Positions 1,106-8,013 of a stretch of 14,896 bases of DNA are shown here, piece by piece. Source of the DNA: a virus; the UHGV virus genome UHGV-0257029. One strand, written 5' to 3'. Below the pieces are notes generated by a model, which saw only the letters and a list, made by a program, of their open reading frames with translations, was not told the origin of the DNA and did no database searches. The stretch's first letter is position 1. The number at the start of each line of letters is the position of its first letter. Both the position numbers and the translations under genes were made by a program.

Positions 1106-1392
1106 TGCCTTACCTCCATAAGCGCCCTATTAATAAACGCCGTCATTGGATTTGCACATCCCCACCCCGTACCATCTGGATTTCTTTTAATTGGCTCCTT
1201 CTTCACTTTGCGTTTTGCATAAATAACCGTCTTCCACTTACGCTCAACAACACTCAAATGTCCTTGTTTCACCATATGCCTTGCTGCTTGAGCGATTCTG
1301 TTATTTGGTATTCCGGTGATCAGTGCTAATTCATGTGGGGAGAATTGTTCATGAGTTTTCAGATATTCCAGGATGATTTCTTTTCCAGTCAC
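1102..1392 (-). CDS. Small basic protein, 96 aa, possible helix-turn-helix DNA-binding protein
   Basis: ORF immediately downstream of the DnaC-like gene with GTGA overlap (GTG start at 1392). The segment ELALITGIPNNRIAQAARHMVKQG has an HTH-like pattern. Confidence 0.4.
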   Translation of the reverse strand: MTGKEIILEYLKTHEQFSPHELALITGIPNNRIAQAARHMVKQGHLSVVERKWKTVIYAKRKVKKEPIKRNPDGTGWGCANPMTAFINRALMEVRQ

Positions 1393-2234
1393 GATCTGCT
1401 CCTGTAACTATCCCATGTAAACGCAAGAGTGCACCCGCCGCCATCATTCATCCTGTCAATAACACGCTCACCAATGAATGCAGACAGTTCATCTTTGCTC
1501 TGGTTGCTAATCAGGATTGTTGGCTTCATGCGCTCGTAGCGGGTGTTGATGATTTCGAACATGATCATCTTTTCCGCCTCGCTTCCAAACTGCACACCAA
1601 CCTCATCGATAATTAGCAGGTCAGGTTTAGTGAACTGTCGGATCACTTCATCCTCTGTGCGGGTGGAGTTTTTCGACCATGTTGATTTATATTCTCTGGC
1701 AATTTTCAGCGCCGTTGTGAAAATAGCTGAGCTTTGATGTTCCGTAATTGCGTGCCGGGCGATAGCCAGTGCAAGATGATTCTTTCCAGTACCAGGCTTT
1801 CCACACATAACCAGCCCACCGCCTTTCTGTAACCTCTCAGGCCATTTGCTGGCGTATGCCTGACACACCCTGAGCACTCTCTTTGCATCGTCGTTGACTG
1901 GCTCGTAGTTCTGTAGTGTGCAACCCTTGAATCGTTCAGGAATATCAAGATTATTCAACAGAAACTCGACATTGCGCTTACGTGATTCCTCGTCGATTTT
2001 AATCTTCTCTGCCTGTAGCCGAATAAGCTCATCTCTCATGCATTCCGGGCATTCGCTAGGTCTCGAGGCAAACTTAATTGGCCCAGTCGAGTAACGGTTA
2101 CGCTGCTCAAACTCACCATGTTTTTCACAGATGCCAGTGCCAATTTCTACAGATGTATGCTCGATAGCAATTGGCGGAGAACTCAATTCTGCAAGTTTTT
2201 TCTCCAGTTGGGAGATCTTTTCATCCAGCGTCAT
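1389..2234 (-). CDS. DnaC/IstB-like AAA+ helicase-loader replication protein
   Basis: Walker A GKPGTGKNHLA and Walker B LLIIDEVG. Start placed at the ATG at 2234 (MTLDEK...) with RBS aggag 5 nt upstream, just after the upstream stop; the ORF track begins 18 nt earlier at 2252. Confidence 0.75.
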   Translation of the reverse strand: MTLDEKISQLEKKLAELSSPPIAIEHTSVEIGTGICEKHGEFEQRNRYSTGPIKFASRPSECPECMRDELIRLQAEKIKIDEESRKRNVEFLLNNLDIPERFKGCTLQNYEPVNDDAKRVLRVCQAYASKWPERLQKGGGLVMCGKPGTGKNHLALAIARHAITEHQSSAIFTTALKIAREYKSTWSKNSTRTEDEVIRQFTKPDLLIIDEVGVQFGSEAEKMIMFEIINTRYERMKPTILISNQSKDELSAFIGERVIDRMNDGGGCTLAFTWDSYRSRS

Positions 2235-2236
2235 GT

Positions 2237-3124
2237 TCACTCCTGCGCCCATGAAGGCATTTCAGTTTGTCCGTAATCTTTGGTGGCAAAGTTTTCAGCC
2301 TTAAGTCCATTAGCAACCTTGCGTACCGGTCTGGATAACGCCTGCTTGTTCTGGTAGCTGAGTTTCTGGCTGGCAGTGATAAACCAGTTCTTTGGCTTCT
2401 CATGGCTAAATTCGATATCCAGCCTTTCCAGTTCGTAATTCAGGTCAATGTTCGGATACAGGCGCTTCCATGCTTCGTAGTCCTTGTGGTTTAACCGAAC
2501 GATATTTCCTTCGAAGGCATAGCGACTTGAAATTTTATGGACATCAGCCCCACCCCCTTCACAAGTCGCGTCAGCGGCTTGGGTGTTAGAAAGGGAATCA
2601 GGAATCAGGTTAAGGGAATCAGGAATCAGGTTAAGGGAATCAGCAGGATTTAAACTGTTCTCTACTGGTTCTTGCACTGTACTTGCATGGTGCTTTTCTG
2701 GTGCTTCATTGTTTTCAATGAACTGCAGTGATTCTACATCCTCCTTCTCTTCATCTTTATCGTCCTTGCACTGTACTTGCATGGTGCTGTTATTGTTCTC
2801 TACTGGTTCTGGTATCTCACTGGCAGCTTCTTTGCAGTGAGGGTTCTGGTGCTTTTTCCAGTTATTGATTTGGATATATGAGCCGCCATTTACCTGATAT
2901 CGGTTGATGAATTTGTGACTGTGAAGTTGCTGAAGCAGATCATTGCAGTCCACATCATCGAAAGGCAGTACCATTGCTTTAATTTTCTTTGGGCGATCAT
3001 CCAACCGCCCTTCTTTGTCAGCAATGGTCCATAACCCGGCAAAAAGGAGACGGGCATATGGAGAACACTCAGCTAATTCATCATTGGTGAAAAAGCCTGG
3101 TTTGATATTTCTTGAACGTGCCAT
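2237..3124 (-). CDS. Putative replication initiator / replisome organiser (not lambda O)
   Basis: Sits directly upstream of the DnaC-like gene in the lambda O position. Conserved-looking N-terminal domain (MARSRNIKPGFFTNDELAECSPYARLLFAGLWTIADKEGRL), acidic low-complexity linker encoded by DNA repeats, distinct C-terminal domain. ATG at 3124 with RBS aaggtgg. Confidence 0.5.
   Translation of the reverse strand: MARSRNIKPGFFTNDELAECSPYARLLFAGLWTIADKEGRLDDRPKKIKAMVLPFDDVDCNDLLQQLHSHKFINRYQVNGGSYIQINNWKKHQNPHCKEAASEIPEPVENNNSTMQVQCKDDKDEEKEDVESLQFIENNEAPEKHHASTVQEPVENSLNPADSLNLIPDSLNLIPDSLSNTQAADATCEGGGADVHKISSRYAFEGNIVRLNHKDYEAWKRLYPNIDLNYELERLDIEFSHEKPKNWFITASQKLSYQNKQALSRPVRKVANGLKAENFATKDYGQTEMPSWAQE
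2591..2644. repeat. 21-bp tandem repeat, about 2.5 copies (aagggaatcaggaatcaggtt), inside the initiator gene
   Basis: Read directly from the sequence; encodes the repeated peptide DSLNLIP on the minus strand. Confidence 0.85.
2656..2810. repeat. Two pairs of exact direct repeats (24 bp and 17 bp) flanking a moderately AT-rich spacer; iteron-like
   Basis: cttgcactgtacttgcatggtgct occurs at 2671..2694 and 2765..2788. tgttctctactggttct occurs at 2656..2672 and 2794..2810. Confidence 0.8.
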
Positions 3125-3135
3125 TTTGTCCACCT

Positions 3136-3936
3136 TTAGTACGGGAGTTCTTCCTGAGCTTCACGAATGCGTTCAGATACCCACTCCTTGAACGTTGTCC
3201 AGTTAGGTACTGTTTTCGCAAACTCAGTAAGTTCATCGAGATCTAAGTCGTATGAAAGCCATGCCTTGAGATAACTCATTACATGGTTTTGATTGATATA
3301 TATGCGGTTTTTAAGGATTCCTCTGATGTATAGAATCCTTTGTTCTTTTGGCGGTTTTCTTTTTGTCGCTGCTATGCGAGGGATGTACTCAAAGAATTCA
3401 CCAGTAAGCTCATGGGTTATTTCTTGGGTGAGTTTTTTGTCTGCGGCAATCTCAATCGCATCGAGGATTTCTTCAAGCTTATATATTCGAAGCCATCTCT
3501 TGATAGATTTTCGCCCATTGTCATTAACAGTAAATGGCGCAATGCAGTCGTCAATTTTGGTAGCGACAATATCAACAACATCGTCTTTCAGGCTCTTAAG
3601 ACCATCTCGCCACTTGATCATCATCTCCAGTTGCTCTCGCTTGGTATTAAGTTCCTGGAGTTGCTGCCTTTGCTTTTCCATTATTGAGTTATCGCTGAGC
3701 AGTTTGTCGCTTTTCCCGCCATTACAACTATCGCAAGAAGTAATAAGGTTCATCATGTCGTTATCGCCACCCTTGCTAACTGGGTTGATATGGTCGACAT
3801 GAAGGATGACGTCTGGCGCAGAACTCCCACAGTACTGGCATTTGAAGCCATCGCGCTTGAAAACCTCAAACCGTATTTTCTTGGTAATGCCGGAACGAAT
3901 CTTTTTTACTTGGTCTGGTGTAGGTTTTTTTGCCAT
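3136..3936 (-). CDS. HNH endonuclease domain protein
   Basis: HNH motif FKCQYCGSSAPDVILHVDHINPVSKGGDNDMMNLITSCDSCNGGK near the N-terminus. Start placed at the ATG at 3936 (RBS ggag 6 nt upstream) rather than the track start at 3948. Confidence 0.7.
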   Translation of the reverse strand: MAKKPTPDQVKKIRSGITKKIRFEVFKRDGFKCQYCGSSAPDVILHVDHINPVSKGGDNDMMNLITSCDSCNGGKSDKLLSDNSIMEKQRQQLQELNTKREQLEMMIKWRDGLKSLKDDVVDIVATKIDDCIAPFTVNDNGRKSIKRWLRIYKLEEILDAIEIAADKKLTQEITHELTGEFFEYIPRIAATKRKPPKEQRILYIRGILKNRIYINQNHVMSYLKAWLSYDLDLDELTEFAKTVPNWTTFKEWVSERIREAQEELPY

Positions 3937-3957
3937 AATTAACTCCATAGAAAGCAG

Positions 3958-4257
3958 TTAAAAATCCATCTGGATTTGTTCAGAACGCTCGGTCTTGCAC
4001 ACCGGGCGTTTTTTATTGGTGAGTCCATCAAGCGCATACTTAAAAGCCCTGCTAATCGGACTGATGTCTGATGCCATTCCGAAAGCACACAAGACCGAAG
4101 CAATAAACCGCCAGTCCGTTCTGCTTATCTTCGATTCATGACAGCCAATCATCTTTGCCAGACCGCGCTGGGTAAGCGTTGACAGGTTGATGAGTAAATC
4201 TGTTTCTGCGCGATCAATTTCTCGCTGTGTTGGCTTGCTATAACTTGCTTGTGTCAT
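3958..4257 (-). CDS. cII: CII-like transcriptional activator
   Basis: First gene after cro on the pR operon. C-terminal ...LTNKKRP..TERSEQIQMDF closely resembles the lambda CII C-terminus as recalled; N-terminal part diverges. Confidence 0.65.
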   Translation of the reverse strand: MTQASYSKPTQREIDRAETDLLINLSTLTQRGLAKMIGCHESKISRTDWRFIASVLCAFGMASDISPISRAFKYALDGLTNKKRPVCKTERSEQIQMDF

Positions 4258-4294
4258 TTGTTAATTTTCCAATAGTGAATAGTTAGTTGAAAGG

Positions 4295-4312
4295 TATGCG
4301 TGGAAACGCATA
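4295..4312 (-). terminator. Palindromic hairpin at the tR1 position between nutR and cII
   Basis: tatgcgt-ggaa-acgcata, 7-bp stem; no strong U-tract, so more likely an attenuator or rho-dependent pause than a strong intrinsic terminator. Confidence 0.3.
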
Positions 4313-4341
4313 TGGCCTTAGTTGGTCAGATATCTTGGGGC

Positions 4342-4356
4342 TCGCTTTGTCAGCGA
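4342..4356 (-). promoter_or_regulatory. Candidate nutR boxB hairpin
   Basis: Minus-strand tcgctgacaaagcga, preceded by ctacg, between cro and cII. Same core cgctgacaaagcg as the element upstream of N. Confidence 0.45.
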
Positions 4357-4394
4357 CGTAGGACGAATGTCCATTGTGAAAATAGCGGTGTTAC

Positions 4395-4595
4395 TTATGC
4401 AGTTGTTTTTTTGTTACTTGGGAAGGGCTTTATTTCTTCCGCATAAACGCTTCCATCAGCGTTTATAGTTAAAAAAATCTTTCGGCCTGCATGAATGGCC
4501 TTGTTAATCGCGCTTTGATATACGCCGAGATCTTTAGCCGTCTTGGTTTGCCCAAAGCGTATTGCATAATCTTTCAGGGTTATGCGTTGTTCCAT
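4395..4595 (-). CDS. cro: Cro repressor
   Basis: 66-aa translation [65 protein letters not shown] matches lambda Cro as recalled. RBS aggag upstream; transcribed from pR. Confidence 0.95.
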
Positions 4596-4614
4596 ACAAC
4601 CTCCTTAGTACAGG

Positions 4615-4690
4615 TAATCATTATCACCGCTAGAGGTATAATAGTCAACACGCACGGTGTTAGATATTTATCCCTTGCGGTGATAGATTT
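4615..4690. promoter_or_regulatory. OR1-OR2-OR3 operators with divergent pR (toward cro) and pRM (toward cI)
   Basis: OR1 4622..4638 tatcaccgctagaggta, OR2 4646..4662 caacacgcacggtgtta, OR3 4669..4685 tatcccttgcggtgata. pR on the minus strand: -35 ttgact (plus 4643..4648), -10 gataat (plus 4620..4625), 17-bp spacer. pRM on the plus strand: -35 tagata 4661..4666, -10 tagatt 4684..4689; cI ATG at 4696 is leaderless. Confidence 0.9.
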
Positions 4691-4692
4691 AA

Positions 4693-5409
<717 letters not shown>

Positions 5410-5479: not shown

Positions 5480-6478
5480 TTGGAAATCAGCACGGCGGTT
5501 ATTCATTCCGAAGAAGATGCTTTGCGTTTTGTTGAGATGTACATCGCTGGGCAAGATCTTCCTGATGGAATATCATTTGAAGGGTGGCCTAACTTAACCT
5601 TCCGTCTTACTGGTGACAAATTTCATGGCAGTTTGACTCCTTCTGTCATGAAGGGTTTTGTTGAAATGCAGGCCCAAATAAACCGAGCTTATGCATTGTT
5701 AAAGTACGGAGTTCCTGACCCAAGAAAGCTTTCAAAAGAAGAGAAGGAAGCTATCGAAATTCAGGTGAATGTTGAGAATGGCTCGTCCTTGATAGAAGTT
5801 AATATGGATGGGTTCATGGGTGAGGTTATACAAACTGCGGTGAGTAAAGTGGGCCCTCAAGAGATCGTTATTACAGTTTTAGGGGTCGCTCTTATATGGG
5901 GCGGCGTCGTCCTATTCAAAAAATATCTAGAAGACCGCAAAGAGATTCGCATGGCAGAAGTAAAAAGCGAGTCTGAGCGTGAACACCTTGCGACCATGCG
6001 CTTCATGTCTGAGCAGGAAACAAAACGAAGTGAATTATTGACTCAGATTATTAGCGAAAAACCCAAGCTAGACAACATGGAAAGACTTGCTCATGACGCA
6101 AAAACCGACATAGTTAAATCATTTGTCAAGGCTGATACAGCTCAGATTGATGGCGTTGTATTGGATGCAGATCTATCCAAAACCCTCACTACAAATGCAA
6201 GGCGGAAATCAATGGAGATCCGCCTTGATGGAAATTATCGCATTGAAAAGGTTGACTCCACTGATCCAGAGAGCTTCAAAGTGCAAGTGAGAAATGTTGA
6301 CTCCGATCTAAGAATATCGTGCATAGTACAAGATGTATTTCTCGACGCATCCGAGCATAAAAAAGCTCTTCAGCAAGCTGAGTGGGATAGAAAACCAGTT
6401 CATTTGTCAATCAACGCAAAAGAACTAGATGGTGAAATAAAGTCCGCGATAATACTTTATGTCAAAGAGATAACATAA
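5480..6478 (+). CDS. Unknown 332-aa protein with one central predicted transmembrane helix, in the rexA/rexB position
   Basis: ORF on the cI strand between cI and OL. TTG start at 5480 with RBS agagg 8 nt upstream (alternative ATG at 5537). Hydrophobic segment IVITVLGVALIWGGVVLF near residues 131-148. No resemblance to RexA or RexB as recalled, and no kinase or nuclease motifs seen. Confidence 0.6.
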   Translation: MEISTAVIHSEEDALRFVEMYIAGQDLPDGISFEGWPNLTFRLTGDKFHGSLTPSVMKGFVEMQAQINRAYALLKYGVPDPRKLSKEEKEAIEIQVNVENGSSLIEVNMDGFMGEVIQTAVSKVGPQEIVITVLGVALIWGGVVLFKKYLEDRKEIRMAEVKSESEREHLATMRFMSEQETKRSELLTQIISEKPKLDNMERLAHDAKTDIVKSFVKADTAQIDGVVLDADLSKTLTTNARRKSMEIRLDGNYRIEKVDSTDPESFKVQVRNVDSDLRISCIVQDVFLDASEHKKALQQAEWDRKPVHLSINAKELDGEIKSAIILYVKEIT

Positions 6479-7811: not shown

Positions 7812-7872
7812 TATGCATACCAATAACGCTTCATTCGAGGCGTTTTCGTTATGTATAAATAAGGAGCACACC

Positions 7873-8013
7873 ATGCAATATGCCATTGCAGGGTGGCCTG
7901 TTGCTGGCTGCCCTTCCGAATCTTTACTTGAACGAATCACACGTAAATTACGTGATGGATGGAAACGCCTTATCGACATACTTAATCAGCCAGGAGTTCC
8001 CAAAAATGGATAA
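7873..8013 (+). CDS. cIII: CIII (FtsH/HflB inhibitor), shorter C-terminus than lambda
   Basis: MQYAIAGWPVAGCPSESLLERITRKLRDGWKRLIDILNQPGVPKNG matches lambda CIII as recalled except for the truncated C-terminus. RBS aaggag 6 nt upstream of the ATG at 7873; the track start at 7813 lacks an RBS. Confidence 0.85.
   Translation: MQYAIAGWPVAGCPSESLLERITRKLRDGWKRLIDILNQPGVPKNG

Follow-up and report, generated by a model that had tools for sequence, protein, structure and literature searches.

The window, a stretch of 14,896 nucleotides, contains a lambda-immunity prophage in reverse orientation, with a near-lambda cI gene at 4696-5409 (+). On the minus strand the genes follow one another in the order Cro (4395-4595, 5' of cII), cII (3958..4257; Pfam Phage_CII, 4.8e-36), an HNH gene (3136..3936), a replication initiator (2237..3124) and, as the module's third gene, a DnaC/IstB-like helicase loader (1389..2252; Pfam IstB_IS21, 1.8e-18; phrog_50, 1.7e-86). 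The initiator (MARSRNIKPGFF...) matches phrog_17247 at 1e-190 as well as the replication-initiation PHROGs 16167, 12556 and 1408. The HNH start lies 21 nt from cII, and the initiator ATG is located 11 nt past the HNH stop. A pR-like promoter, TTGACT-17-GATAAT, is present at 4620..4648 (-), the sole site found by a promoter scan of 2200-4750; the scan revealed no minus-strand promoter or terminator between this promoter and the HNH gene. The pR-like promoter would drive cro-cII-HNH-initiator. The first-pass annotation had placed the gene in the pR operon between cII and the initiator, and both the Pfam/PHROG assignments of its neighbours and the pR-like promoter agree with this placement. The contrast that it drew with lambda, in which cII is followed directly by O, also holds in a close comparison: the related phage mEpX1 passes from a 94% identical cII straight to a lambda-type O.

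In the ORF listing, the minus-strand reading frame at this position is 3136..3948 (270 aa), beginning at an ATG upstream of 3936. The start is likely to be the ATG at 3936, which yields 266 aa followed by the stop codon (3136-3138), because a Shine-Dalgarno sequence GGAG (3943..3946 (-), read from the sequence) lies 6 nt 5' of this ATG and the RefSeq/GenBank models are 801 nt long. The coordinates given earlier for the gene are thus correct; the strand, which had been left unstated, is minus. The protein is a member of PHROG 16986 and is 100% identical to RefSeq WP_001549473.1, annotated as 'HNH endonuclease'. Its motif residues (C33-x2-C36, H47-V-D-H-I-N-P53, N63, C68-x2-C71 and N72) reproduce, residue for residue, the complete HNH/zinc-finger motif that had been read from the 266-aa frame. 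Pfam HNH (PF01844) is matched over residues 33-77 at E=1e-13, with 51.6 bits vs a cut-off of 21.4, and HNH_5 at 3.5e-12. In an alignment of 62 homologues, D48, H49, N63 and N72 are invariant, as are the zinc-binding residues C33, C36, C68 and C71. With the curated threshold passed, the catalytic and zinc residues all present and a beta-beta-alpha-metal fold, the protein belongs to the HNH/His-Me finger superfamily; judged by its domain and residues, the gene is a real, intact HNH nuclease gene.

An AlphaFold2 model built on the 62-homologue alignment (mean pLDDT 89.9) shows a protein of three parts. The HNH (His-Me finger) nuclease head, with the pattern CxxC...DH...N...CxxC-N, comprises residues ~14-80 (3697..3897 (-)). 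It is followed by a single long helix, residues 84-131 (3544..3687 (-); pLDDT 72-97 per 10-residue block), and by a compact C-terminal domain of eight helices, residues 139-263 (3148..3522 (-); pLDDT >93). The helix is 48 residues long, contains R100, Q102 and W109, which are invariant among the 62 homologues, and may serve as a coiled-coil or dimerisation element. The C-terminal domain has the conserved motifs Y203-IRGIL-x3-R211 and NW246T. It had been described at first as lacking any obvious motif, and this description stands: Pfam, NCBIfam and PDB sequence searches returned no match to any known family there, and Foldseek against PDB and BFVD gave matches to the HNH domain only. When a 5.8-billion-protein index was queried with this domain by itself, its word filter let through 6 matches. 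Weak fold matches of the C-terminal domain are to a DnaD-like domain and to the SPP1 helicase-loader protein G39P. (The motif of DnaD/DDBH2-type replication domains is YxxxIxxxW.) Homology between the C-terminal domain and initiators is undetectable, and the fold searches recognised no modification-reader fold in it. The HNH head resembles the Gme HNH nickase, the HNH domain of EcoKMcrA and those of Cas9/IscB. Small zinc-finger HNH nucleases of this McrA/Cas9/IscB type (Gme, PDB 4h9d; GVE2 phage, PDB 5h0m; EcoKMcrA, PDB 6ghc) are its closest relatives, but they are bare domains or have other partners, whereas the window protein adds the 48-residue helix and the eight-helix domain.

The boundary between cII and the HNH gene also carries an oop-like antisense RNA unit (3934..4018 (+)), identified by a terminator scan and by alignment with phages Louie and mEpX1. 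(The HNH gene is present in both Louie and Dewey, two E. coli phages that have been isolated.) We take this unit to be the counterpart of lambda oop/pO; in lambda, pO overlaps the start of O. Its -10 hexamer, CATAAT (3934-3939), shares positions with the HNH start codon, and its terminator hairpin (3982-4012) falls within the 3' part of cII; both the start of the RNA and its terminus at 4018 are putative. The unit has been retained although the HNH gene stands in the place of O. Because the match between the window and Louie reaches ~4023, inside the oop/cII 3' end, a mosaic junction can be placed within the conserved oop stretch. At the other side of the HNH gene, homology of the initiator with HK639, OW1E2 and yong1 starts exactly at the initiator ATG. 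Within the initiator gene, iteron-like direct repeats AAGGGAATCAG recur every 21 bp at 2591..2643 (repeat search families D3 and D4) and encode the peptide PDSLNLIPDSL, a peptide repeat that is also present in Pseudomonas and other initiators; a hairpin-forming 20-mer, GCACTGTACTTGCATGGTGC, is found in two copies in 2656-2825. The repeat region is a candidate origin.

The protein is one member of a widespread family. It matches PHROG 16986 ('unknown function') at E=1e-151, residues 11-259 aligning with profile positions 1-248 of 248. An exhaustive search gave 801 clusters (50% identity) at E<=1e-30, and the top matches are nearly all 245-290 aa long and aligned over their full length. Full-length relatives, 36-57% identical, occur in phages of Pseudomonas, Vibrio and Oenococcus, and likewise in genomes of many phyla; the window protein is 44% identical to an Oenococcus phage copy and 50% identical to a copy in an Anaerococcus genome. 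Across hosts, the C-terminal domain is 40-55% identical. The annotation 'HNH endonuclease', which is already public, therefore conceals a large and conserved family of three-part proteins, which forms ~800 clusters at 50% identity. In the literature searched, this family, its three-part architecture and its pairing with initiators are undescribed; neither experimental data on it nor a functional study of it was found there, and the Krappator phage paper lists the HNH gene beside the replisome organiser and goes no further.

Initiators, loaders and helicases on the fetched loci were detected by iterated profile searches. Among the IMG/VR loci that could be evaluated, the initiator starts within ~-120 to +150 nt of the HNH stop in 51 of 75, and other replication genes are nearby in 6 more; by a rough estimate, adjacency to an initiator would be expected by chance in ~2% of cases (one gene in ~60). 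In Oenococcus, Vibrio, Pseudomonas and several metagenomic phages, the HNH-initiator pair is followed by a lambda-P-, DnaC- or DnaB-like gene. Overlaps of the HNH stop with the initiator start are common (-3, -7, -13 and -19 nt), and their frequency in relatives suggests translational coupling. By their N-terminal sequences, the initiators paired with the HNH gene can be sorted into at least three classes, represented by 'MARxRNIKP...', by the wHTH sequence 'KLVLLRLAD...ECWPS' and by the Gram-positive 'VDTxFWxDEKV...SPEDK', and closely related HNH proteins are paired with initiators of different classes. Given these three or more classes, one common DNA target cannot account for the adjacency.

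The pair is also inherited together. Among 5,426 complete E. coli genomes, the 18 that contain the HNH gene are exactly those that contain this initiator allele, and the two are always adjacent. The first-pass annotation had proposed that the junction be compared with that of HNH-less relatives in order to define the insertion boundaries; among the 5,426 E. coli genomes, there is no HNH-less allele of the same initiator for such a comparison. Instead, the HNH gene and initiator are found jointly exchanged for an O-type initiator, with the flanks conserved, both in E. coli (mEpX1) and in Pseudomonas (BUCT566).

The position immediately upstream of the initiator was surveyed in 78 viral loci having an initiator of the window type, and the gene in this slot was scored. 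It is occupied in 43 loci by a GIY-YIG/T5orf172 nuclease, in 9 by the HNH protein and in 6 by a 134-aa protein resembling HK639 gp53, while the remaining 20 have other genes there; a gene with a nuclease domain (GIY-YIG or HNH) is thus present in 52/78. (The GIY-YIG slot genes are at L188-L266, in most loci just upstream of position 3001, and at L006:4895-5587.) Lambda-type modules have an empty slot. Initiators that are ~90% identical to that of the window carry any of the GIY-YIG, HNH or 134-aa genes, and those that are 77-90% identical have in the slot a GIY-YIG nuclease, the unrelated 134-aa protein or a clamp-like protein. This variety of occupants at ~90% identical initiators indicates that the HNH protein is not needed by the initiator and that turnover in the slot is fast. 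A C-terminal domain shared with other occupants was rejected, as hhalign gave a probability of <1% for each of the OW1E2 GIY-YIG protein, HK639 gp53 and a 178-aa yong1 protein.

In three lineages an HNH domain is found within the initiator itself: E. coli 20AR0300 (two prophages), Pseudomonas phage P27 and Azohydromonas (genes at L005:4001-5038 (-), L007:4952-5989 (-), L105:2443-3525 (+) and L021:4774-5403 (+)). The inserted domain lies between the initiator N-terminal domain and the iteron-encoded linker, and the stand-alone HNH gene persists upstream of the HNH-bearing initiator in 3/3 lineages. The profile phrog_5718 matches the HNH protein and also the initiator N-terminus. A further apparent HNH-initiator fusion, at L166, was discarded since a stop codon separates the two genes.

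Sequence evolution at the locus indicates strong constraint. Comparison with two relatives gives a dN/dS of 0.05-0.06, with little difference between the HNH head and the C-terminal domain; the head alone gives 0-0.07, and the C-terminal domain is constrained at least equally. On the same contigs the HNH proteins are 98, 93 and 89% identical vs 90, 80 and 69% for the adjacent initiators. The GC content of the HNH gene, 0.43 vs 0.45 for the window, is unremarkable and lends no support to a recent foreign insertion. There are degenerate HNH alleles in E. coli and a metagenomic phage (P0087, P0271 and L268:2776-3512): one is frameshifted after residue ~117, another has lost residues ~123-245 in frame, and a third has its frameshift within the zinc finger. 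Two apparent HNH-less family members did not hold up: P0008 is a contig-end truncation and P0269 a frameshift in the zinc-finger region.

Taken together, the dN/dS, the identities, the co-inheritance and the base composition do not fit a recent or decaying parasite; from its sequence and context, the HNH gene seems to have been kept by the replication module as a partner for a long time and not to be a recent parasitic insertion. Of the two roles first suggested, a selfish insertion or a function in replication or recombination, the link to replication fits the data (adjacency in 51/75 loci; HNH domains inside some initiators). A recent selfish insertion finds no support in this clade, with its ordinary GC, its dN/dS of ~0.05 and its swapping jointly with the initiator.

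Our preferred explanation, to which we assign a probability of about 0.4, is that the protein is an early accessory nuclease, co-expressed with the initiator, which nicks or cuts replication or recombination intermediates. The HNH gene would be transcribed early from pR together with the downstream initiator. The HNH head would be recruited by the C-terminal domain to DNA where replication is active or close by, the target being either a structure (a fork or a D-loop) or a site or host factor that many bacteria share. Nicking or cutting by the head would follow, and the resulting break could be used for recombination-dependent or rolling-circle replication. Recombination at the edge of the module would arise as a side effect and would account for the presence of the HNH gene at mosaic junctions, part of the selfish-looking pattern. 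In this scheme, nuclease activity, substrate, dimer and effect on replication are all predicted. The adjacency, the coupling, the co-inheritance, the HNH-initiator fusions, the strong constraint and the nucleases in the slot speak for it. It explains poorly the chromosomal clades and the fact that the protein is dispensable for the initiator, and a C-terminal domain that lacks initiator homology, the pairing of closely related HNH proteins with different initiator classes and the decayed alleles count against it.

To our knowledge, the switch from theta to rolling-circle replication in lambdoid and related phages is still unsettled, and a long-kept nuclease that precedes the initiator, is sometimes fused with it and is elsewhere replaced by another nuclease family would be a concrete candidate for this switch. 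For the theta-to-sigma switch of SPP1, the current model invokes the processing of stalled forks by nucleases (PMC6316719); the fork-processing set proposed for this switch consists of the gp44 resolvase, the gp34.1 exonuclease, gp35 and gp36. As in SPP1, the window nuclease is encoded among replication genes, and by analogy a break-making role may be proposed for it; unlike the window HNH protein, gp44 is a RusA-type resolvase of unrelated fold. A more general proposal, that many temperate-phage modules carry a dedicated nuclease (this HNH family, GIY-YIG or an HNH domain built into the initiator) which cuts at or near the origin as a programmed trigger from theta to recombination-dependent or rolling-circle replication, is unlikely. 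In staphylococcal phage 80alpha, gp18 (DUF968) lies in the replication operon, and it is presumably the 80alpha HNH protein whose role is called dispensable in the SPP1 genome paper. Comparison rejected gp18 as a homologue of the window HNH protein, and consequently the dispensability observed in 80alpha is not transferable to the window family.

A possible, though somewhat unlikely, alternative is that the gene encodes a free-standing homing-type endonuclease, a selfish element that cuts HNH-less genomes near the module border and is copied, flanks included, into the cut genome during repair. Different families of homing endonucleases would then compete for the slot before the initiator as a landing site, and the occupancy of the slot agrees with this: HNH and GIY-YIG/T5orf172, both classic free-standing families, alternate there, homology resumes at the initiator ATG, and any of three slot genes can precede initiators of ~90% identity. 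So does the location of the HNH gene at mosaic junctions, with the Louie match stopping inside the oop/cII 3' end. In other phages, nuclease genes have been described close to essential genes and at places where genetic exchange has its boundaries (PMC10448857). In this respect the window gene is like T4 Mob/Seg, I-HmuI and the T5orf172 and IPA-HNH nucleases of ICP1 (PMC10448857), nuclease genes between essential genes at an exchange boundary; it is also like free-standing homing genes in its alternation with a GIY-YIG gene and in its degenerate alleles, which are frameshifted or internally deleted.

The chromosomal copies add to this side of the argument. They form separate clades in a neighbour-joining tree and occur as lone genes in unrelated contexts. 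Among the genome-derived loci, 50/80 lie among housekeeping genes with no replication gene nearby and 28/80 are adjacent to an initiator. The neighbours of chromosomal copies include aconitase, glutamine synthetase, topoisomerase and RNase E/G, and no common synteny was seen, even between related genera. Copies with no replication genes nearby imply that the protein can act without an initiator. In Candidatus Electronema, a 48% identical full-length homologue (L012:4001-4810) stands alone between pyrH and frr in the operon rpsB-tsf-pyrH-frr-uppS, as though inserted into this set of housekeeping genes.

Several features nevertheless distinguish the window family from free-standing homing genes. 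The DNA-binding part of a homing nuclease should be matched to a neighbouring target, but here the putative DNA-binding C-terminal domain is conserved across contexts, at 40-55%, while flanking genes share no sequence; its family is linked to unrelated initiator classes, and with at least three of these and many chromosomal contexts a common target site is not apparent. Selection should be weak or episodic, but it is very strongly purifying (dN/dS 0.05), the protein being more conserved than the neighbouring essential gene. As to presence and absence, the occupant does vary at initiators of ~90% identity, but the nearly identical initiator always comes with the HNH gene, and the empty-site allele is absent from the 5,426 E. 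coli genomes searched. The joint movement of the HNH gene and the initiator and the unremarkable base composition also argue against homing. If the gene were selfish, it would be an unusual homing-type nuclease, one that is subject to very strong purifying selection and marks where the immunity module meets the replication module, and as such it would bear on the formation of phage mosaics.

A nuclease of conflict, which would attack foreign or competing DNA early in infection (co-infecting phages, satellites, plasmids or modified DNA), is distinctly unlikely. Such a protein would act like McrA-type enzymes or the origin-directed nuclease of ICP1, and its link with the initiator would be due to timing or to origins competing with one another. 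The McrA/Cas9/IscB type of the HNH head is in keeping with this, as is the resemblance of the solitary, mobile-looking chromosomal copies to orphan restriction or defence genes; in addition, the nuclease domain of the GIY-YIG slot protein matches the candidate defence families PDC-S57 and PD-Lambda-1. A precedent is ICP1 Odn, in which a T5orf172 nuclease is joined to the DNA-binding domain of a RepA_N initiator (PMC10448857), a layout comparable to that of the HNH-in-initiator variants in 20AR0300, P27 and L021. However, the window protein, unlike Odn, has no initiator DNA-binding domain, and the HNH-bearing initiators keep their iteron region and C-terminal domain and are probably working initiators rather than dedicated weapons. 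PADLOC-DB v2 gave no full-length match to the protein, only weak matches of the HNH domain (E>=9e-8) to PtuB, REase_II and Cas9 models. Moreover, a lysogen would not be expected to express a gene of the pR operon with no detected promoter of its own, the conflict model does not predict how tightly the gene is coupled to the start of the initiator, and the C-terminal domain has no recognised modification-reader fold.

It is highly improbable that the nuclease head is vestigial and that the protein works mainly by way of its helical domain, in a structural or regulatory capacity such as binding to the initiator, the helicase or the loader. Constraint on the C-terminal domain at least as great as that on the head, together with the weak fold matches to a DnaD-like domain and SPP1 G39P, would suit such a factor, but none of the catalytic residues and zinc ligands varies among the 62 homologues, the head evolves under a dN/dS of 0-0.07, and the apparently HNH-less proteins proved to be products of truncation and frameshift. 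The packaging-associated nickase that was also considered initially is excluded because the gene lies in the early operon between cII and the initiator: nucleases of the HK97 gp74 type (Kala 2014; Quiles-Puchalt 2014) are likewise HNH proteins of temperate phages, but they are ~100-120 aa long and encoded beside terminase and the cos site, whereas the window protein has 266 aa, two further structural parts and a place in the early-right operon beside the initiator.

Some other features of the family and of the window may be recorded. Longer members (400-600 aa) showed no extra domain and no initiator domain in Pfam, PHROG and jackhmmer searches. They include a clade of ~420 aa, mainly from Bacteroidota and Melainabacteria (Gastranaerophilales), which has an additional C-terminal region of ~170 aa with no Pfam or PHROG match and occurs in non-phage contexts (L039, L043, L049, L054, L060, L064, L067, L072, L076, L077, L079, L081, L082, L084, L090 and L091). 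Three Gastranaerophilales copies adjoin a DpnII-type restriction gene. In the window, a 332-aa reading frame at 5480-6478 (+), downstream of cI, occupies the position of lambda rexA/rexB; it gave no Pfam match above threshold and none in PADLOC. The lambda cIII thermoregulator RNA element is present at 7860-7918 (+) (Rfam RF01804, 88.5 bits), and the early-left region is thus lambda-like.
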